Source of the DNA: Candidatus Saccharimonadota bacterium
GTDB taxonomy: Bacteria > Patescibacteriota > Saccharimonadia > Saccharimonadales > DTSZ01
Assembly (NCBI GenBank): GCA_012965045.1
Contig: DTSZ01000001.1
Span: 6,607-70,606, forward strand
Direction: 5' to 3'
Length of the DNA stretch: 64,000 bases
Shown: positions 325 to 30,782 of the stretch, in pieces
Layout: each line of letters begins with the position of its first letter
How positions within the stretch are numbered: the first letter of the stretch is position 1
Notes under the pieces: generated by a model
What the model was told of the DNA's origin: nothing
Databases searched by the model: none
What the model saw: only the letters and a program-made list of their open reading frames with translations
Program-made: the position numbers and the translations under genes

Positions 325-410
325 TTTGGATTATACAGATAGGCAAACAGAGGTAATCTTTGACCACGATGAGCGTCAAAGTAATTGCACTCTGTTAGTC
401 ATATGCACAT
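325..410 (+). other. 5' strand of the pre-23S processing duplex (leader)
   Basis: Positions 327-351 (ttggattatacagataggcaaacag) pair with 3961-3986 (ctgtttgctctatctgtataattcaa). Positions 381-411 (gtaattgcactctgttag...cacatg) pair with about 3934-3958 (catgtggctaacatagtgtaattac). Together they form a long RNase III-type duplex bracketing the 23S. Confidence 0.65.
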
Positions 411-682
411 GAAAAGAATAGTAAGAGCATACGATGGATGCCTTGACACAAAATACTGATGAAGGACGTGGTAATCTGCGATAAGCTTCGGGAAGCTGAT
501 ACACAAGCGTTATATCCGAAGATTTCCGAATGGGGAAACCCGGCTAGAGTTATGTCTAGTCACTCTTGTCTGAATATATAGGACAGGTAGAAGGTACCCG
601 GTGAACTGAAACATCTTAGTAACCGGAGGAAGAGAAAATAAGAATGATTCTCCTAGTAGTGGCGAGCGAACGGGGAAGAGAC

Positions 683-873
683 TAAACCTTATATGTTTCC
701 GTCTTTTAGAAGACGGATAAGCTGACAGGCGAAAATATATAAGGGGTTGCAAGAAATCTTATGTCATGAATATTACGATAATTGGTGTTAATTTAACTAC
801 GGTTAGATTGCAGCGATTAGAGTTATATTTATGAATGATTAAGGACTGTCATCCTGATCGTAATTTCGCTGTA
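683..873 (+). other. 23S insertion 1 (domain I, near E. coli position ~270): about 170 extra AT-rich nt
   Basis: About 190 nt lie between gagcgaacggggaagagactaaacc and attagtagaaggttttggaaagaacc, where E. coli (recalled from memory) has about 16-20 nt. The segment contains the self-contained hairpin tccgtctt-ttag-aagacgga flanked by ccttatat/atatataagg. No ORF is present. Confidence 0.6.
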
Positions 874-1241
874 TTAGTAGAAGGTTTTGGAAAGAACCGC
901 CAAAGAACGTGAAAGCCGTGTATACGAAAATGCAGTTTGAACTTATATAGAGGTTTCTTAAGTAGGTCGGGGCACGTGCAATCCTGACTGAATCTGGGAG
1001 GTCCACCTCCCAAGTCTAAATATATTTTGTGATCGATAGCGAACCAGTACCGCGAGGGAAAGGTAAAAAGAACCCCGAGAGGGGAGTGAAATAGATCCTG
1101 AAGTCGTATGCTTACAAGGAGTCGGAGCCTGCTTTATGCGGGTGACGGCGTGCTTTTTGTAGAACGATCCAACGAGTTAATTTTGTCGGCTTGGTTAAGT
1201 CATTTGACGGAGCCATAGTGAAAGCGAGCCTTAATAGGGCG

Positions 1242-1408
1242 TAGGGGTCTCATCCCTGCCAAAAGTTGTATTGCGAGTTTAAATCAGCTGCCTGAAACGG
1301 CGGGAAATTTTTGAAAAGTATCAACCTAGATACTTAGAAAAAATTTAACACCGTTATCAGACGTTGATTTCAGCTCTCATAACCATCTTTTGGTAGAGAC
1401 GAGACCCC
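1242..1408 (+). other. 23S insertion 2 at the helix-25 position (~E. coli 545): about 165 nt, IVS-like hairpin
   Basis: The insertion sits between aatagggcg and aaaggtcggcaggattagacacgaaac. It is closed by ggggtctc (1244-1251) pairing with gagacccc (1401-1408), extended by ctgccaaaag (1255-1264) pairing with cttttggtag (1387-1396). The interior is AT-rich and has no ORF. Confidence 0.7.
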
Positions 1409-2445
1409 AAAGGTCGGCAGGATTAGACACGAAACTAAGTGACCTAACCATGGGCAGGTTGAAGCGGCGGTAAAACGCCGTGGAGGACCGAACCAGGGCA
1501 CGCTGTAAAGTGCTTGGATGACCTGTGGTTAGCGGTGAAATGCCAATCGAACTTAGAAATAGCTTGTTCTCCTCGAAATAGCTTTAGGGCTAGCGTGACG
1601 TGGTAGCAAGTGGGGGTAGAGCTCTGTTTACGATTGGGGTCCGCAAGGATACCCACCGTTGACAAACTACGAATACCATTTGTGAAATCGTTGCAGTCAG
1701 AACCTGGGGGCTAAGCTCCAGGCTCGAAAGGGAAACAGCCCAGATCGCCATCTAAGGTCCCTAAGTCTATGCTAAGTGGGAAACGAGGTGGAATTTCTTA
1801 AACAATGAGGATGTTGGCTTAGAAGCAGCCATTCATTTAAAGAGTGCGTAACAGCTCACTCATCAAGAGATTCTGCGCGGAAAATGTAACGGGGCTAAGC
1901 ATAGCACCGAAGATGCGAATTGCAGTTTACTGCAGTGGTAGAGGAGCGTTCTTGTCAGCGTTGAAGTTGGACTGCGAGGTCTGGTGGAGCGGCAAGAAGT
2001 GAGAATGTTGGAATTAGTAACTATTCGGGAAGTGAGAATCTTCCCCGCCGAAAGAGTCAGGTTTCCTGGGCGATGATCGTCATCCCAGGGTTAGTCGGTC
2101 CTAAGCCGAGGCGAATAGCGTAGGCGATGGACAACGGGTTAATATTCCCGTACCGGTGTGAGTGTTGTAGGAAGTGCGCGGCGTGGTAGTTCGAGCGGTT
2201 TATGGTTATAACCGTTTAACTGTCTAGACTTCGGTCGAAGCAGGAATAAAACCGTTTCTAAGAAATGGAATTTGAATGACCCATGCTGACCAGAAAAGCT
2301 TTCCTATGTTAATAGCTCACTCCGCCCGTACCGCAAACCAACACAGGTACTCAGGTCGAGTAGACCAAGGCGTTCGAGAGAACCTTCGTTAAGGAACTCG
2401 GCAACAAAAGCGGCCGTAACTTCGGGATAAGGCCTGCCCCGTCAC

Positions 2446-2593
2446 ATTGTTTACAATGCGACGAAGCAAATGAAGTTTTGTTGTCAGTTTAAGAACGATT
2501 CATGTTAATTATTTCATATGATATCTATCGTTGAGAAGACACAATATAATTGCTCTTAACTGATGTAACTTCGTCAATAACGTTGTAAATAGC
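2446..2593 (+). other. 23S insertion 3 in the helix-63 region (~E. coli 1710-1750): about 120 extra nt
   Basis: The closing helix is ccccgtcac (2437-2445) paired with gtgacgggg (2594-2602). The interior is strongly AT-rich (for example ttaattatttcatatgatatctatcg). E. coli has a much shorter helix here. Confidence 0.65.
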
Positions 2594-2675
2594 GTGACGG
2601 GGCCGCAGTTAATGAGCCCACGCGACTGTTTACCAAAAACACAGGTCTCTGCTAACACGAAAGTGGATGTATAGG

Positions 2676-2708
<33 letters not shown>

Positions 2709-2764
2709 AAGAGAGTTCACGCTTTCGACTGAAGCCCCGGTGAACGGCGGCGGTAACTATAACC

Positions 2765-2813
<49 letters not shown>

Positions 2814-3050
2814 TGGCGTAACGATGTGGGCACTGTCTCAACGAAGGACTCGGTGAAAGTGCATTGGCGGTAAAGATGCCGTCTGTCCGCATCAGGACGA
2901 GAAGACCCCGTGGAGCTTTACTACAGCTTGGCATTGCATTAGGCTGCGGCTTGTGCAGGATAGGTGGGAGACTTTGAAGCAGATCCGCTAGGATTTGTGG
3001 AGTCACCCGTGAAATACCACCCCTGCCGCCGTTTGATGCTTACCTGGACC

Positions 3051-3199
3051 TCATTTTGCAAAGCAATTTGAAGGATTCCAGCGTAGCTAATTTAAGTAAG
3101 TAACACATATATATAACGGTTAATCGTAATTTTTTATCAAACCTTATGTTTTATTTATTCATTTAGATATACGTGATTTGAATTTGATTTGTAGAATCA
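3051..3199 (+). other. 23S insertion 4 in helix 79 (~E. coli 2200-2225): about 125 extra nt
   Basis: About 150 nt of very AT-rich sequence (taacacatatatataacgg..ttttatttattcatttagatat) lie between gaaataccacccc..gatgcttacc and gggaccgtgtctggtgggtagttta. The closing pair is cctggacc (3043-3050) with ggttcagg (3200-3207). Confidence 0.65.
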
Positions 3200-3423
3200 G
3201 GTTCAGGGACCGTGTCTGGTGGGTAGTTTAACTGGGGCGGTTGCCTCCCAAAGAGTAGCGGAGGCGTTCAAAGGTCGGCTAACCTCGGATGGAAATCGAG
3301 GCTATAGTGCAAGCGCAGAAGCCGGCTTGACTGTGAGACTGACAAGTCAAACAGATACGAAAGTAGGAGCTAGTTGTCCGCTGTCCGTACATTCGTACAT
3401 GAGAGTGGTATCGGCAGCGCTTT

Positions 3424-3454
<31 letters not shown>

Positions 3455-3486
3455 TATAGCGCCCAATAGTTCACATAGACGGCGCT

Positions 3487-3524
<38 letters not shown>

Positions 3525-3525
3525 C

Positions 3526-3593
<68 letters not shown>

Positions 3594-3643
3594 AAGACAG
3601 TTCGGTTTATATCCGATGTGGACGAAAGGAAACTTGAGAGAAT

Positions 3644-3674
<31 letters not shown>

Positions 3675-3885
3675 GAACCTCTGGTGTATCAATTGTCGCA
3701 CCTGCGGCATTGTTGAGTAGCTATGTTCGGTTGTGATAAGTGCTGAAAGCATCTAAAGCACGAAGCCATACTCAAGATTAGGTTTCCCTATGAGATCCCG
3801 GAAAGACTATCCGGTTGATAGGCGCAAGGTGTACGCACTGCAAAGTGTTTAGCCGAAGCGTACTAATAGATCCATTGTCTTTTCA

Positions 3886-3987
3886 TGCTCTGAGTATTTG
3901 GAATAATATGTTCCAGATATTCAGAGAAAACGCATGTGGCTAACATAGTGTAATTACTTTCTGTTTGCTCTATCTGTATAATTCAAT
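3886..3987 (+). other. 3' strand of the pre-23S processing duplex plus an internal spacer hairpin
   Basis: This region is complementary to 325-410 (see the feature above). It also contains a 16-bp hairpin, ctctgagtatttggaa-taatatg-ttccagatattcagag, at about 3889-3927. Confidence 0.6.
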
Positions 3988-4926: not shown

Positions 4927-5130
4927 ATGGCTGGAACTAAAGCAGGTGGCGCAAAAGCTGCACTAACTAATAAAAAACGATACGGCAAAGACTTTTACGC
5001 TAGCATTGGCGCAAAAGGCGGACGAAACGGTAACACTGGTGGTTTTGCTGCTAACCGTGAACTAGCTCGAAAAGCTGGTGCTAAAGGTGGTCGCATTAGC
5101 CGACGTACTAAAGCAAAAAAATCTGAATAG
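4927..5130 (+). CDS. KGG-repeat general stress protein (GsiB/YciG-like)
   Basis: A 67-aa Gly/Lys/Ala-rich protein with repeated ..GAKGGR.. units (IGAKGGRNGN, AGAKGGRISR), as in the stress-induced KGG repeat family. Confidence 0.7.
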   Translation: MAGTKAGGAKAALTNKKRYGKDFYASIGAKGGRNGNTGGFAANRELARKAGAKGGRISRRTKAKKSE

Positions 5131-5150
5131 AATACAATATATTTAGATCA

Positions 5151-5180
5151 AAAGCCTAAGGCTATGTCCTTAGGCTTTTT
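5151..5180. terminator. Bidirectional terminator hairpin between convergent genes
   Basis: The hairpin is aaagcctaagg-ctatgt-ccttaggctttttg, an 11-bp stem with an A-run upstream and a T-run downstream. It overlaps the stop codon of the minus-strand gene at 5170-5172. Confidence 0.6.
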
Positions 5181-5643
5181 GCTTTGTTGGCACTCGACAA
5201 ACACGCTTTTTTTGGTCAAAGCTGACTTTCCAGAAGGCTTGGCAATTAAGACAGGTGTAGTGAAGTTCGTGGTTTTGGTAGCCAGTTTGCTCACATTCTA
5301 TACATGTTGATCGTTTGTCTAGCCACAGTCGGTATGAGTCGAGGCAGTTTTCGGCAAGGTCATCATTAAATGTAATTGCATACCGTTCGCATAGCTCACG
5401 AGCTTTTTCCCATGCTGCGACCTCTTTTTTTAGAAGATCTACATCATTCTCGATTGAGTTATGGTCTAGCAGGGCGTGCCCTAATTCGTGCAGCAAAATC
5501 AATCGTCCATTTTCTTCACCAATAAATTCAGGATTAAAATAAACTGTTTTTTCTTCTGGGCTCCAGCGAAATTCATCGGCTGCCGAGAAGTTAAGATCAG
5601 TAAAGTCGGACTTAATTTGCTGCAAGGTACTGTTTTGCGGCAT
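5170..5643 (-). CDS. Hypothetical HExxH metallopeptidase-like protein with a C-terminal Cys4 zinc-ribbon
   Basis: The motif LLHELGHALLDH fits HExxH, and downstream CIECEQ...CLNCQ fits CxxC-x12-CxxC. It loosely resembles the ImmA/IrrE-type fold, but I cannot name a family. Its start overlaps the end of the ROK gene by 32 nt. Confidence 0.55.
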   Translation of the reverse strand: MPQNSTLQQIKSDFTDLNFSAADEFRWSPEEKTVYFNPEFIGEENGRLILLHELGHALLDHNSIENDVDLLKKEVAAWEKARELCERYAITFNDDLAENCLDSYRLWLDKRSTCIECEQTGYQNHELHYTCLNCQAFWKVSFDQKKRVCRVPTKQKA

Positions 5644-26110: not shown

Positions 26111-26746
26111 ATGACAGAAATTAGATTATATCGACACGCACAATCAGAACTTAATATACGACGTGATTTGGTTGGAGGACGAAGCAATCAGACGAGACTA
26201 ACACAGCTTGGCGAATCACAAGCTGTAGCTTTGGCGTGGCACCTGCAAAGTGAGAACTATTCTCCTGACGTGGTGTTTAGTTCACCTGCCATACGAGCAA
26301 TCCATACTGGAAGAATTGCTCTTTTGGGCCACGGTATAAAGGAAGACGATTTTATAACTGATTATGGCCTGCAAGAATTGAGCCAAGGACATGCTGAAGG
26401 TGGGCCTAGAGAAACTATATATACTGACGAAATCAGGGCTCGAATAGGTGTTGAACTTGAGGAGTTCGCATTTGAAGGTGGTGAATCGATGAGGCAAACT
26501 GGGCAACGAATGCTAAACGATTGGTTGCTGCCAACATTAGAGAAATTTCCAGATGCAGATAGGATTGTAGCGTTTACCCATGGCTTTGCGATTAAATGTT
26601 TAGCAGCTCAGGTTGAAGATGGCTGGGATCACTCTCGAATACGCTTCCATTCTGTACCAAATGTATCAGAAACAACCTTATTTTATGATCGACAAAGTGC
26701 CGCGTTGACAGTTGGCGATGTAGGGAAAGTCACAGTTGCTGACTAG
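26111..26746 (+). CDS. Histidine phosphatase family protein (phosphoglycerate mutase-like)
   Basis: The N-terminal LYRHAQSE is a variant of the RHG catalytic motif. A downstream FTHGFAIK provides the second His. Confidence 0.7.
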   Translation: MTEIRLYRHAQSELNIRRDLVGGRSNQTRLTQLGESQAVALAWHLQSENYSPDVVFSSPAIRAIHTGRIALLGHGIKEDDFITDYGLQELSQGHAEGGPRETIYTDEIRARIGVELEEFAFEGGESMRQTGQRMLNDWLLPTLEKFPDADRIVAFTHGFAIKCLAAQVEDGWDHSRIRFHSVPNVSETTLFYDRQSAALTVGDVGKVTVAD

Positions 26747-26763: not shown

Positions 26764-27036
26764 ATGAAGCTTACGATTATTACAAAAGAAGACCACGAAG
26801 ACCGCCGAGAGATTCGCCAATATATTGAATCGATTAAAGACGATCTGCATGAAGGTGTTGATTTCAATGTTTACGATTCTAAAACTAAAGAAGCCCAGTC
26901 TGTTATGCAGCTGTATGGCTTAATGCAGTACCCGGCAATAGTCATTACCCGACCACTCGATGGCAGCGTGATTCAGACATGGCAAGGGATGCCGTTGCCA
27001 CGCAAGAGTGAGATTGTTTATTTTGCTAATTCTTAA
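26764..27036 (+). CDS. Hypothetical 90-aa protein (possibly a thioredoxin-like fold, but without a CxxC motif)
   Basis: The ORF is compact with a plausible globular composition. I recognise no diagnostic motif. Confidence 0.45.
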   Translation: MKLTIITKEDHEDRREIRQYIESIKDDLHEGVDFNVYDSKTKEAQSVMQLYGLMQYPAIVITRPLDGSVIQTWQGMPLPRKSEIVYFANS

Positions 27037-27538
27037 GATTTAAGCAAACTAAAGTTTGCAATTTAATTCCACCATTTTGAGTGATCAAAACGGTGGAGCC
27101 AAAAGATCACCCTGTTCGTATCTCTTGATATCTTCATTGCTAAATAACACAACAGCCTCCGGAATGGCTAAAGCCAGTCTGAAAGTAATCCATAGGAGTT
27201 TCAGACAGGTCCTCGGCTTAATTCTTGTGTATTTAGGCATTCAGATTCAGGATCCGCTCAAAAGGGAGGGGCGAGCTTCGCTCGCCCTGTAGCCCTGCAG
27301 CCTCTTCCACTTCCTCAACCTACCTGATCAACGAGTGCCTCAAATACAACTAAAGCAAAAAACTTTGCTGAGCCTAATCCAATAAAATTATAGCGAAGCC
27401 GCTTGACGTTGTTTTTTGCGTTGTATTTCTAAGCAATGAGATGATAGAGAAGGGTGAGTGTGGTCGTATTTTTGGCTTCCGTTTTTGACGAGACAAAAAT
27501 GGAAGAGTAATGGCAAGCGTCAGCTTGCAACTAAGTAA

Positions 27539-27567
27539 TTCAAAAATATGTACATCTGCTATATACT
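27539..27567 (+). promoter_or_regulatory. Candidate promoter of the ileS leader (TTCAAA-N17-TATACT)
   Basis: TTCAAA lies at 27539-27544, followed by a 17-nt spacer and TATACT at 27562-27567, immediately upstream of the T-box leader. Confidence 0.4.
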
Positions 27568-27574
27568 TTTAACT

Positions 27575-27780
27575 ACAAAGCATTTGGAGCATTCCAAGAA
27601 GTGGCTATCAACCACAAGCTAATGGGAAGAACGGATTAGTCTAAGTAGAACCCATCGCAGATCCTCACTGCGAAATCAAAAGACCGAGATAAAGAAGTAA
27701 GTCGTATGATTTGCATGCACGGATGGTACCTCGCTAAAACAGCGATCCTGCACTCACAAGAATGTGAGTGTTTTTATTTT
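27575..27780 (+). promoter_or_regulatory. T-box riboswitch leader, isoleucine specifier (AUC), with a very short Stem I
   Basis: The T-box core tgcacGGATGGTACCtcgc lies at about 27716-27735 (compare the consensus GGGUGGUACCGCG). The antiterminator is gca-c-ggat[ggtacc]tcgct-aaaac-agcga-atcc-tgc. The hairpin gtgg-CTATCAA-ccac (27601-27615) displays AUC (27607-27609) followed by A. Downstream, the hairpin cactcaca-agaa-tgtgagtg (27751-27770) plus TTTTTATTTTT lies just before the aaggag SD of ileS. Confidence 0.7.
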
Positions 27781-27794
27781 TAAGGAGATAGATC

Positions 27795-30782
27795 GTGAAA
27801 TTTAAAGCCAAAACCCGACGAAAAGCTATAGAGTACGAAAAAGACATTGTTATGCAGTGGAAGAAAAACAAGACGTTTGAGAAGTCTGTAGAGACGCGTC
27901 CAAAGGAAAATAGTTACGTATTTTATGACGGCCCACCGTTTATATCTGGTGACCCGCATCACGGAACACTACTGAGCAGTATCGTTAAAGACGCCGTGCC
28001 GCGCTTTTGGACAATGAAAGGCAAACGAGTTGAACGTGTATGGGGCTGGGATTGTCACGGATTGCCGGCGGAGCGATTTACAGAGAAAAAACTAGGCATT
28101 CATTCTAGAGAAGAAGTAATAGAATACGGTATTGAAAAATACATTAACGCAGTACGAGCTAATATGGTTCAGACCAGTAGTCAGTGGGAAGACACCATTG
28201 ATAGAATTGGTCGTTGGGTAGAGTTTAAGGGTGCCTATAAAACTATGGACAAAGACTACATGGAAAGCGTGTGGTGGGCTTTTAAAACTCTGTATGAAAA
28301 AGGCAAGATTTACGAGGGTGAAAAGGTATTGACGTACTGTACGTTGGACGGTACGCCATTGTCTAAGGCCGAAGTAACCATGGATTCTGGTGCATACCAA
28401 GATGTCACCGACCCGAGTGTGTATGTGAAGTTTAAGTTAACTGATGGCTCAACGCTCCTAGCCTGGACAACCACACCGTGGACACTCCCAGCTAATACGG
28501 CTGTAGCGGTTAATAGCGATGTAGAGTATAGCGAAGTAAAGGTTGGCGACGAGCAGTTTATTGTTGCTACTGATTTACTAGAATCAGTTCTTGTTAACGA
28601 AAAAAAGCAACCACTGGAATATGAAGTCATTCGAACTCTAATGGGCTCAGAACTAGTCGGCAAGTCCTACGAGCCGCTGTTTGTTGATCGCGGCGAAAAC
28701 GCTCACAAAGTTTGGGCGGCAGACTATGTAGAAACAGAAGCAGGCACTGGTATTGTGCACTTAGCACCAACATACGGCGAAGAAGACTTTGAGCTGGCTA
28801 AAAAAGAAGGTTTTCCAACTGTTCACACCATTGATGAACACGGCTACTTTACTGAGGGGCCGTGGCAGGGTCAGAACGTGTGGGAGATTAATAAACAGAT
28901 TGCTAAAGACATGAATCGCTACAGTACAAAAACATTGCAGGGCGAATACGCTGCGATGGCGACTGAGCAACGCATCGAATTCCACAAAAACAATGAACCA
29001 GAGCCAGACGCCGCAATTTGGCGAGTCGACTACATAAAGCACAGCTACCCGCATTGCCACCGCTGTGATACAAAATTAATGTACCGCGCGCACCCGAGTT
29101 GGTTTATGGATATTGACGGACAGCGCCAGCAAATGCTGGAACTGAACGGCAATATAAATTGGTTTCCTGACCATCTAAAGCACGGTCGGTTTGCTAAAAA
29201 TATAGAGGCAGCACCAGACTGGAACCTTAGTCGTGACCGTTTTTGGGCAACTGCTATGCCAGTATGGAAAAGTGAGAGCGGCAACGTAAGGGTGGTTGGT
29301 AGTTATGCTGAACTCAAAAAGCTAAGTGGAGTAGAACTAGATGACTACCATCGTCCATGGATTGACGACGTTACGTTCGAACGCGACGGCGAAACATACA
29401 CTCGCGTAGATAAAGTTATGGATAGTTGGTTTGAAGCTGGTTCAATGCCGTTTGCTCAGTTCCATTACCCATTTGAAAACAAGCAAAAGTTTGAGCAAAA
29501 TTTCCCGGGTGATTTTATTGTTGAGTATATCGGACAGGTCCGAGCGTGGTTTTACTACATGCTGGCTGTATCAACAGCGCTATTTGGTAAAGAGTCATTC
29601 CAGAATGTTATTACCACCGGAACCTTAGCCGGCAACGATGGCCGCAAGATGAGTAAAAGTCTTGGCAACTATACCGACCCGAACGAGTTGATGGATCAGT
29701 TTTCTGCTGACGCATTGCGCCTTACTTTACTAACCAGCCCAGTACTTAATGGCGAAGATTTTGCCTTAAAAGACAAAGATGTGTCCGACGCTAATCGGAA
29801 GCTTGCCATGATCTGGAACATGTACGACTTTTTTACACTGTATGCAGAGGTGGACGAGTGGGAATGGGACGGTAGCTTAAACGACCCAACTGATTCACTT
29901 AGCAATAGTTTAGATTTGTGGGCGGTTAGCCGGGTGCACGAGGTAGCCAAAATTATTGAAGAATCAATGCAGCGGTATGATTTGCCAAGCGCCACACGTC
30001 CTATATTTGAATTGATTGAAGATATGTCTAACTGGTATGTGCGTCGTAGCCGTCGCCGGTTTTGGAAAAGTGAAGACGATTCAGATAAAAATGATGCCTA
30101 CAAAACACTTCATTATGTGCTTACTCAGATGAGTATAATTTTTGCACCGTTCACACCATTTTTAAGTGAAGAGCTTTATCAAAAGATGACCGGTGGTGAG
30201 TCAGTGCACTTGCTTGACTGGCCACGCATAGGCCACACTAACGAGCTTCTACTAGAACAGATGAAGGTCGCGCGATTAGCGATTAATTCAGGGCTTTCAA
30301 TTAGAGCAAAAAATCAGATAAAAGTAAGACAGCCGCTCGCTAATGTTACGGTTTCAAATAGTGCTGAATCAAAAATTACAGATGAATTGATCGACGTAAT
30401 TAAAGAGGAACTCAATGTTAAACAGATGACTTTTTCTAGCCTAGACTATGCCGAAGACAATTCATCAATGGATACATTTGCAAAAGAGTTTGTTGTACAA
30501 CTTGATACTAAAATCACAGATGAGCTTAAAGCTGAAGGTATGGTGCGAGACGTCATTCGACAGGTGCAGAGTGAGCGTAAAAAAGCTGACTTTGAGGTTG
30601 ATGATCACGTAGAGCTTACCCTGTGGACAGATGATAAAGAGTTGCAAAACGCTATCAAGGCCCATGCTGAACTAATTCAGCAAGAAACCCTCGCCACAAC
30701 ACTCCTAAGTACCAAGCCGAGCAACCAAATTGAATGCAAGATAGCCGGTAAAGAACTGCTAATTGCTGTAAAAAAAGTCTGA
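27795..30782 (+). CDS. ileS: Isoleucyl-tRNA synthetase (type 2 / eukaryote-like architecture; GTG start)
   Basis: Recognisable blocks are GPPFISGDPHHGT (HIGH region), WGWDCHGLP, the CP1 editing domain (TTTPWTLPANTA) and GRKMSKSLGN (KMSKS). The protein is 995 aa. Confidence 0.95.
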   Translation: MKFKAKTRRKAIEYEKDIVMQWKKNKTFEKSVETRPKENSYVFYDGPPFISGDPHHGTLLSSIVKDAVPRFWTMKGKRVERVWGWDCHGLPAERFTEKKLGIHSREEVIEYGIEKYINAVRANMVQTSSQWEDTIDRIGRWVEFKGAYKTMDKDYMESVWWAFKTLYEKGKIYEGEKVLTYCTLDGTPLSKAEVTMDSGAYQDVTDPSVYVKFKLTDGSTLLAWTTTPWTLPANTAVAVNSDVEYSEVKVGDEQFIVATDLLESVLVNEKKQPLEYEVIRTLMGSELVGKSYEPLFVDRGENAHKVWAADYVETEAGTGIVHLAPTYGEEDFELAKKEGFPTVHTIDEHGYFTEGPWQGQNVWEINKQIAKDMNRYSTKTLQGEYAAMATEQRIEFHKNNEPEPDAAIWRVDYIKHSYPHCHRCDTKLMYRAHPSWFMDIDGQRQQMLELNGNINWFPDHLKHGRFAKNIEAAPDWNLSRDRFWATAMPVWKSESGNVRVVGSYAELKKLSGVELDDYHRPWIDDVTFERDGETYTRVDKVMDSWFEAGSMPFAQFHYPFENKQKFEQNFPGDFIVEYIGQVRAWFYYMLAVSTALFGKESFQNVITTGTLAGNDGRKMSKSLGNYTDPNELMDQFSADALRLTLLTSPVLNGEDFALKDKDVSDANRKLAMIWNMYDFFTLYAEVDEWEWDGSLNDPTDSLSNSLDLWAVSRVHEVAKIIEESMQRYDLPSATRPIFELIEDMSNWYVRRSRRRFWKSEDDSDKNDAYKTLHYVLTQMSIIFAPFTPFLSEELYQKMTGGESVHLLDWPRIGHTNELLLEQMKVARLAINSGLSIRAKNQIKVRQPLANVTVSNSAESKITDELIDVIKEELNVKQMTFSSLDYAEDNSSMDTFAKEFVVQLDTKITDELKAEGMVRDVIRQVQSERKKADFEVDDHVELTLWTDDKELQNAIKAHAELIQQETLATTLLSTKPSNQIECKIAGKELLIAVKKV

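Follow-up and report, generated by a model that had tools for sequence, protein, structure and literature searches.

Probable back-to-back genes for a new class of structured RNA on an apparently inserted module upstream of ileS in a Saccharibacteria genome

RESULTS

The gap between p90 and ileS

The stretch analysed here (the window) comprises 64,000 nt of contig DTSZ01000001.1 from a Candidatus Saccharimonadota bacterium, and all coordinates below are window positions. Our subject is the gap at 27037-27538, which separates p90, a 90-aa gene at 26764-27036, from ileS (27795-30782). A first-pass annotation, made by reading the letters, had singled out this gap as about 0.5 kb without a credible open reading frame (ORF), dense in hairpins and possibly encoding a structured RNA that could not be placed. 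The lack of a credible ORF was borne out, as the longest ORF in the gap has 78 aa and the small ORFs are neither matched by Pfam nor conserved. All six local hairpins that had been picked out by eye were found where they had been placed. The unusual size of the gap was also confirmed: in relatives with the gene order nrdJ-p90-ileS, which many of them keep, the p90-ileS spacer has roughly 230-430 nt, and in many it has ~280 nt.

Folding of the 502 nt with RNAfold gave -165.5 kcal/mol for the plus strand (z = -5.95 against dinucleotide shuffles) and -168.7 kcal/mol for the minus strand (z = -7.0). None of 100 shuffles folded as well as the gap on either strand, so that folding is far better than chance on both. 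A scan of the whole window with Rfam 15, a test that took in tmRNA, RNase P, SRP, 6S, HEARO, OLE, ROOL, raiA and ribozymes, returned only the 23S and 5S rRNAs. At E <= 10 the interval 26900-27900 gave chance-level matches only and no family, in agreement with the earlier failure to place the gap among tmRNA, RNase P, SRP and 6S RNA. ARAGORN found no tRNA or tmRNA.

A lineage-specific module between p90 and the ileS leader

IleS assigns the organism to Saccharibacteria, and the closest species-representative match to the protein is 69% identical. Contigs with an identical p90 protein are 100% identical across the gap, and therefore belong to the same genome. The only other close p90 cluster is represented by contig L085, with 76% identity, and the gap sequence is missing there: p90 and ileS are 226 nt apart in L085 versus 758 nt in the window. 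The alignment of the window with L085 runs to the p90 stop codon and restarts at 27578, within the ileS leader, which leaves ~0.5 kb as extra sequence in the window.

According to the junction alignment, the empty site in L085 lies at TAATTC^ATAAAT, and the right junction agrees with it at 16/21 positions. The single-copy TAATTCATAAAT of L085 appears twice in the window, as TAATTCTTAA at 27027-27036 and as TAATTCAAAAAT at 27536-27547. Taken together with the alignment of the two arms described below, these junctions delimit an imperfectly palindromic module of ~503 nt (27033-27535) between two direct repeats of TAATTC. The left repeat (27027-27032) spans the final codons of p90, whose stop codon is completed by the element. 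The right repeat (27536-27541) overlaps the -35-like hexamer of the ileS-leader promoter, a promoter-like site at 27539-27567. The duplication leaves both the p90 stop codon on the left and this hexamer on the right intact. The two junction copies look like a target duplication of TAATTC, which is short and AT-rich; the same pattern would be expected from a deletion between repeats. A precise deletion in the L085 lineage could thus account for the difference in place of an insertion in the window, but the short spacer is the common state among relatives. We conclude that the 0.5 kb module is, as the comparison of junctions shows, in all likelihood a lineage-specific insertion between p90 and the ileS leader.

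Searches with blastn, nhmmer and tblastx found nothing like the gap at 80 Saccharibacteria ileS loci, and the gap sequence had no match in phage and plasmid collections or in viral contigs. Because the extra 0.5 kb is missing from the syntenic site of the nearest relative, conservation was sought at non-syntenic loci.

The surroundings of the module differ between lineages in another respect. A histidine-phosphatase gene (26111-26746) sits between nrdJ and p90, two genes that are adjacent in most relatives, and L085 has a different gene, of 181 aa, at this position. The nrdJ-p90-ileS neighbourhood appears to be a hot spot for lineage-specific insertions.

Two inverted homologous arms

When 27033-27278 was aligned with the reverse complement of 27279-27538, 156/216 positions were identical (72%), and the alignment score was 50 versus 6.5 +/- 3.4 for shuffles (z ~13). 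The arms are inverted homologs over ~250 nt, and at the level of primary sequence the gap is shown to be an imperfect palindrome composed of two homologous arms. The following features are common to both arms, in this order: an outer small hairpin, a hairpin of the form CCATTTT(T)G-loop-CAAAA(A)CGG, the heptamer GCCAAAA and the complement of the hairpin loop. A change of stem sequence between the arms is compensatory (CCACC/GGTGG versus CTTCC/GGAAG), and the same mismatch is kept. The outer hairpins, GCAAAC-TAAA-GTTTGC at 27044-27059, which adjoins the p90 stop codon, and GCAAGC-GTCA-GCTTGC at 27513-27528, mirror each other and are terminator-like. At the symmetry axis lies a GC-rich hairpin (27269-27287), which is terminator-like on the minus strand, where CTCCCTTTTG follows it.

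The palindrome accounts for the long-range pairings around this central hairpin that had been described before. The outermost one was found as an inverted repeat (27134-27153 with 27420-27439, 80%), and the inner ones occur in the minimum free energy fold. However, they do not form one nested domain of a single RNA; they join two inverted homologous copies.

A dispersed family in two lineages

From the positions common to both arms we derived the search pattern CCATTTT N8-10 AAAACGG N2-4 GCCAAAA. Scanning metagenome contigs with it gave 65 loci, of which ~45 are clearly related well beyond the pattern; viral contigs gave no match. The hosts are Saccharibacteria and candidate division Kazan. 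At one locus (L139), the LepA protein adjoining the element is 81-84% identical to named Saccharibacteria proteins. In Kazan, at least three diverged copies lie on one contig of 0.6 Mb, and their helix sequences differ.

Members are intergenic and stand beside unrelated genes. Their neighbours include housekeeping genes (RarA, LepA, CtpA, FtsA, HolB, NrdJ and TyrRS) and accessory genes (Fic/Doc, ImmA-like M78 peptidase and a SnoaL-like protein), and no neighbour gene recurs in the flanks of ~45 loci. Pairs arranged back to back, 5' to 5', were found in at least seven loci, namely the window, L143, L116, L128, L131, L146 and L031. The arms within pairs are 64-76% alike, and the central palindrome is also seen in other pairs, such as that of L131. 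Hairpins equivalent to the outer hairpins of the window flank other members; they are alike within one element and different between elements. Genuinely single copies occur as well, immediately after ORFs of the same orientation.

At none of the 18 family loci scanned did Rfam match the element, nor did it match the best member at E <= 10. No description of the element was found in the literature, either by topic or by sequence string. Hammerhead, SRP, RNase P, tmRNA, 6S, retron msr, attC and type I toxin mRNA were considered and rejected, being without defining motifs (judged by eye) or Rfam support. An omega-RNA of TnpB or IscB was likewise rejected, since the flanks of ~45 loci hold no tnpB or iscB neighbour and the ends carry no guide-like sequence. 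With no Rfam match, the family is new, and it is of the dispersed structured intergenic RNA element kind.

Several loci are of interest in their own right. The related contigs L128 and L143 have the RNA pair and one flanking 90-aa ORF in common, and on the other side their genes are inverted and relocated, which suggests a rearrangement at the element. L143, a Saccharibacteria contig where two tRNA genes accompany the pair, also has a group I intron match (53 bits) at 5042-5212, at the contig end. Downstream of lepA in L139, where a clean empty site was sought, synteny is broken for >1.4 kb, and this candidate was set aside. Two other contigs, from Saccharibacteria (L153:4280-4450 and L154:4280-4412), carry a conserved insert of ~95-145 nt after lepA, ATCGGGAAGAGCAGCCCA...GCGATGAGAAACCCC...GGGGTGTCTCAT; ~26-42 nt from the 3' end of lepA occur as direct repeats on either side of it. 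This insert has no Rfam match and is missing in L155 and L156, which have a 9-nt gap. Apparently it is another small structured element, distinct from the present one, which is likewise inserted at gene 3' ends.

Conserved fold, covariation and strand

At the outset the search pattern itself (CCATTTT...AAAACGG...GCCAAAA) was taken as the sense strand. This reading was overturned by folding energies and by G.U counts: the opposite strand is more stable by 12.7 +/- 7.7 kcal/mol in 32/34 units (RNAfold, p = 5e-7), and in that sense orientation G.U cells outnumber A.C cells by 177 to 43. RNAalifold applied to a MAFFT alignment in the wrong orientation recovered almost nothing. Applied to eight members in sense orientation, it gave 50 pairs, 23 of them with compensatory changes.

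A covariance model, R1, was built from those eight sequences; it has 188 positions and 52 pairs and contains no window sequence. Among its 31 strong matches, 90% of pair cells are paired and 46/52 pairs vary on both sides, with a covariation score of 0.525 compared with 0.138 after shuffling and <=0.10 with slid partners. For a second model, R2, the alignment of 57 sequences includes Kazan members outside the training set; 90.9% of its cells are paired, and 48/52 pairs vary on both sides. When two of the Kazan paralogs are aligned full-length they form 41/52 and 38/52 pairs, the remaining cells being mostly alignment gaps. Such compensatory changes between paralogs point to selection on the fold itself. 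The helices within each arm thus covary in both the R1 and the 57-sequence alignments, and folding is biased to one strand.

Three parts make up the conserved architecture. An irregular rod comes first, whose 5' and 3' portions pair to close it; near the base of the rod there is a tandem-G.A internal loop, and at its apex the junction CGAGGAC...UGUYUGA-hairpin(s)-GAGUUCCGCAG, both of them conserved. Next comes a 3' module, which consists of a pseudoknot strand, a UUUUGG linker and the hairpin CUUCCGUUUUG-loop-CAAAAUGGAAG, with the consensus CYNCCGUUUUG-loop-CAAAAUGGNRG. In this hairpin four U-A pairs are invariant, the G.U is kept in 41/50 sequences and the outer pairs covary. The loop and the pseudoknot strand match over at least 5 bp in 58% of members versus 13% for mismatched partners (permutation p < 1e-4). 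The third part is usually a small terminator-like hairpin, which is often followed by a U-rich tract.

The two copies in the window

Both arms of the gap are shown by the models to be members of this one structured-RNA family, lying on opposite strands. R1 matched the minus strand from 27267 to 27067 over its full length (model positions 1-188) with 42.7 bits (E ~6e-12), and the plus strand at 27397-27507, the 3' module, with 28.9 bits (E ~1e-7); these were its only matches in the window. R2 matched the second copy over 27308-27507 with 55.6 bits, a score to be read with the fact that part of this copy was in the R2 training set. Copy 1 (27067-27267, minus strand), with its rod and 3' pseudoknot hairpin, is the better conserved and forms 44/52 consensus pairs. 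Copy 2 (27308-27507, plus strand), composed of a rod and the canonical 3' module, is more diverged and forms 42/52. Folded alone, each copy gives a rod, a 3' hairpin and an outer hairpin.

The 3' hairpin of copy 1 (27069-27096, minus strand) reads CCACCGUUUUG-AUCACU-CAAAAUGGUGG in RNA sense and carries the conserved G.U. Its putative pseudoknot has 6 bp, between GAUCAC of the loop (27081-27086) and GUGAUC (27105-27110), and the linker is UUUUGGC (27098-27104). In copy 2 the corresponding hairpin, CUUCCGUUUUUG-ACGAGA-CAAAAAUGGAAG (27476-27505, plus strand), follows from the sequence and from the covariance-model alignment. Its pseudoknot would have 4 bp, between ACGA of the loop (27488-27491) and UCGU (27464-27467), with the linker AUUUUUGG. 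Both copies fit the pattern of 3' hairpin and linker exactly, and the window holds no third match. The copies point away from each other, with the 5' ends together at the central GC hairpin and the 3' modules on the outside, and each outer hairpin lies 3' of its own copy.

This arrangement also settles the question of the strand. The first-pass annotation had left it open, noting that wobble pairs in two of the hairpins favoured opposite strands. The wobbles do so because the copies are read in opposite directions: the conserved G.U appears on the plus strand as G.U in the right hairpin and as A.C in the left one.

Other features of the window

The ileS leader (27578-27794) is 80% conserved with L085 and has a terminator hairpin with a U-run (27750-27771). 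It also has T-box-like motifs, GGAUGGUACC, GGAUGGUACCUCGC and AUC in a loop-like context. It had been taken for a T-box; the likeness stands, but there is no Rfam T-box match even at E <= 10. The leader may be a divergent T-box of the candidate phyla radiation (CPR, Patescibacteria) overlooked by the current model.

The 23S rRNA match at 410-3887 spans 3478 nt compared with 2925 nt for the Rfam model, which implies ~550 nt of insertions. They are possibly rRNA insertions of the CPR style or introns. No convincing ORF was found inside the insertion-bearing gene.

DISCUSSION

Two probable genes for a new structured RNA

Our data make it probable that the gap holds a pair of genes, one of them perhaps in decay, which encode a stable structured RNA of a new class and sit on an inserted module. 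In accordance with this model, a module of ~0.5 kb would have been inserted between p90 and the ileS leader, carrying two back-to-back RNA copies of ~170-200 nt, each predicted to consist of a rod, then a 3' H-type pseudoknot and then a small terminator-like hairpin. The copies would be transcribed as separate stable RNAs. A U-rich linker beside an invariant run of U-A pairs in an H-type pseudoknot is the classic setting for U.A-U triples, and the four invariant U-A pairs may form such a triple helix with the U-rich linker. The triple-helix pseudoknot could then cap and protect the 3' end. The RNA would presumably work in trans, for instance by serving as a scaffold to which proteins bind, and not on a fixed neighbour gene. 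A transposition-like or site-specific event, with duplication of the target TAATTC, may have brought the module here, and the module is possibly mobile.

This expectation of a structured, non-coding and unassigned sequence had been part of the first-pass annotation, and it is now supported by membership in a strongly covarying family. Several observations weigh against two RNA genes. No conserved promoter of the sigma-70 type was found upstream of the modelled 5' ends, and in some pairs, such as that of L143, these ends are only ~5 nt apart, which leaves no room for separate promoters. Copy 1 alone folds with z = -4.35; copy 2 alone, with z = -2.08, is marginal over shuffles and diverged, and its decay may be under way. 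Saccharibacteria hold few members of the family: a sample of 0.79 Mb around ileS yielded one further locus. Since the alignments were fitted to the models, the covariation counts are somewhat inflated, although the margin is very large. Finally, G.T pairs are tolerated in single-stranded DNA, and the strand bias is not a strict proof of RNA.

Alternative explanations

An unlikely but serious alternative is that the module is a foldback DNA element similar to a miniature inverted-repeat transposable element (MITE). In that case it would be a transposon that is not autonomous and depends on a transposase gene at another place, the product of which binds the long terminal inverted repeats; its RNA-like structure would either be incidental or matter in a single-stranded DNA intermediate. 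Such an element would explain the polymorphism of presence and absence with TAATTC at both junctions, and the ends that, in the window and L031 alike, are mirror images with outer hairpins that match. It would also be in keeping with the accessory genes (Fic/Doc, ImmA-like M78) beside members at some loci, with the synteny that is disrupted at a second locus, downstream of lepA in L139, and with the lack of a detected promoter. Yet the window contains no further copy of the module, the flanks of ~45 loci show no transposase-like or recurrent neighbour, and many members are single arms and not palindromes. Paralogs in one genome are old and differ by compensatory changes, and the pairing of loop and strand in the pseudoknot covaries. 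Moreover, precise deletion between short repeats could mimic the empty site. Terminal inverted repeats are present, yet they are whole RNA units and not short sites for transposase binding. The two readings are not fully exclusive, as a mobile RNA gene would combine them. It is also conceivable, though we regard this as speculative, that the element is a self-contained mobile RNA gene of an undescribed class in CPR, with a rod of ~190 nt and a 3' triple-helix pseudoknot cap, which spreads singly or in pairs to gene 3' ends. Instead of being a passive repeat, it would then work together with a protein, for example in a new system of mobility or defence that depends on RNA, where it would be the guide or the scaffold.

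Less probable again is a module that acts in cis at 3' ends as a bidirectional terminator, insulator or mRNA stabiliser in the manner of REP/BIME. It would work on read-through from the flanking genes, and the inverted pair would give independence of orientation. Units do lie in intergenic regions at gene 3' ends with terminator-like hairpins on either side; in about one third of loci a co-oriented ORF ends 8-70 nt upstream, and the module of the window stands between the ileS promoter and the p90 stop codon, which it follows directly. However, 190 nt with 52 pairs, a pseudoknot and invariant loops go far beyond the needs of termination, the orientation relative to flanking genes is inconsistent, and the closest relative, L085, does without the module. 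The single RNA of ~300-500 nt that had been proposed at first, a domain closed by pairings between the arms, now seems highly improbable. On either strand the whole region does fold into one nested structure (z from -6 to -7), but a DNA palindrome is expected to be equally stable on its two strands, and the complementarity between arms (64-76%) follows from the homology of the copies. The relatives are often single copies and carry the full conserved structure, each copy of the window folds alone into a rod, the conserved covarying helices all lie within one arm, and the covariance models put the copies on opposite strands; a closed domain of ~300 nt is not upheld by these data. We give hardly any credence to a small protein gene, of 51 aa on the minus strand or 78 aa on the plus strand, or to a decayed pseudogene. 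Both ORFs exist, and the JGI annotation calls a gene here. Nevertheless, neither Pfam nor tblastx against 80 related loci gave a match, and ORF length, frame and start position are unconserved among 31 family members, so that the 51-aa ORF suggested earlier as worth checking does not hold up as a gene. The JGI "55-aa" gene (27085-27555, minus strand) contains several in-frame stop codons and is an annotation artefact over the RNA element.

Implications

CPR genomes are tiny and tightly packed. Hence, 0.5 kb of structurally selected non-coding DNA is costly and probably functional. To our knowledge, very few non-coding RNAs specific to CPR have been described. A fold of 52 pairs with a pseudoknot, ~45 members in at least two deep lineages and compensatory changes between paralogs amount to evidence of the quality that has preceded new riboswitches, ribozymes and guide RNAs. 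In addition, the back-to-back arrangement and the insertion polymorphism point to an unusual mode of spread. For genome annotation, our results can explain a gap that seemed "empty". They also call for caution, as long-range complementarity can be merely two inverted copies of a gene.

Comparison with known systems

We compared the element with known systems, using Rfam as well for HEARO/IscB and 6S RNA. Like the HEARO/IscB omega-RNA and the IS605-orfB RNAs, it is a structured RNA of a few hundred nucleotides with a pseudoknot, intergenic, present several times per genome and subject to insertion polymorphism; in those systems the partner ORF is sometimes missing. Unlike them, it has no Rfam match at E <= 10 and no TnpB, IscB or transposase neighbour in ~45 loci. 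Its ends are not guide-like, a conserved outer hairpin follows its 3' end, and its 5' ends abut in pairs.

REP/BIME/REPIN sequences and MITEs such as Correia and ERIC resemble the element in being intergenic palindromic repeats at gene 3' ends, often as inverted pairs. Whichever strand is read, they fold into long hairpins, and they can influence termination or the stability of mRNA. In contrast to them, the unit of our element is 5-6 times longer, has 52 pairs and a pseudoknot, covaries and is strongly biased to one strand. Its conservation spans the distant CPR lineages Saccharibacteria and Kazan, and its observed copy number is low.

A U-rich strand beside an invariant U-A run in an H-type pseudoknot is shared with the SAM-II and SAM-V riboswitches, the telomerase RNA pseudoknot and the ENE, and the position of the pseudoknot at the 3' end is like that of ENE and A-tract caps. 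These systems differ from the element in that it has no sequence or covariance-model similarity to them, carries a rod of ~140 nt and lacks the upstream position of a riboswitch; the triple helix of the element is itself predicted from this resemblance of setting. The element resembles 6S RNA in length (170-200 nt) and in forming one irregular rod that is interrupted by internal loops and closed by pairing of its 5' and 3' parts. It differs from 6S RNA in having no Rfam 6S match, in its extra 3' pseudoknot module, and in its several paralogs and inverted pairs. Moreover, it is inserted in or missing from close relatives, which would be unexpected for a housekeeping regulator.

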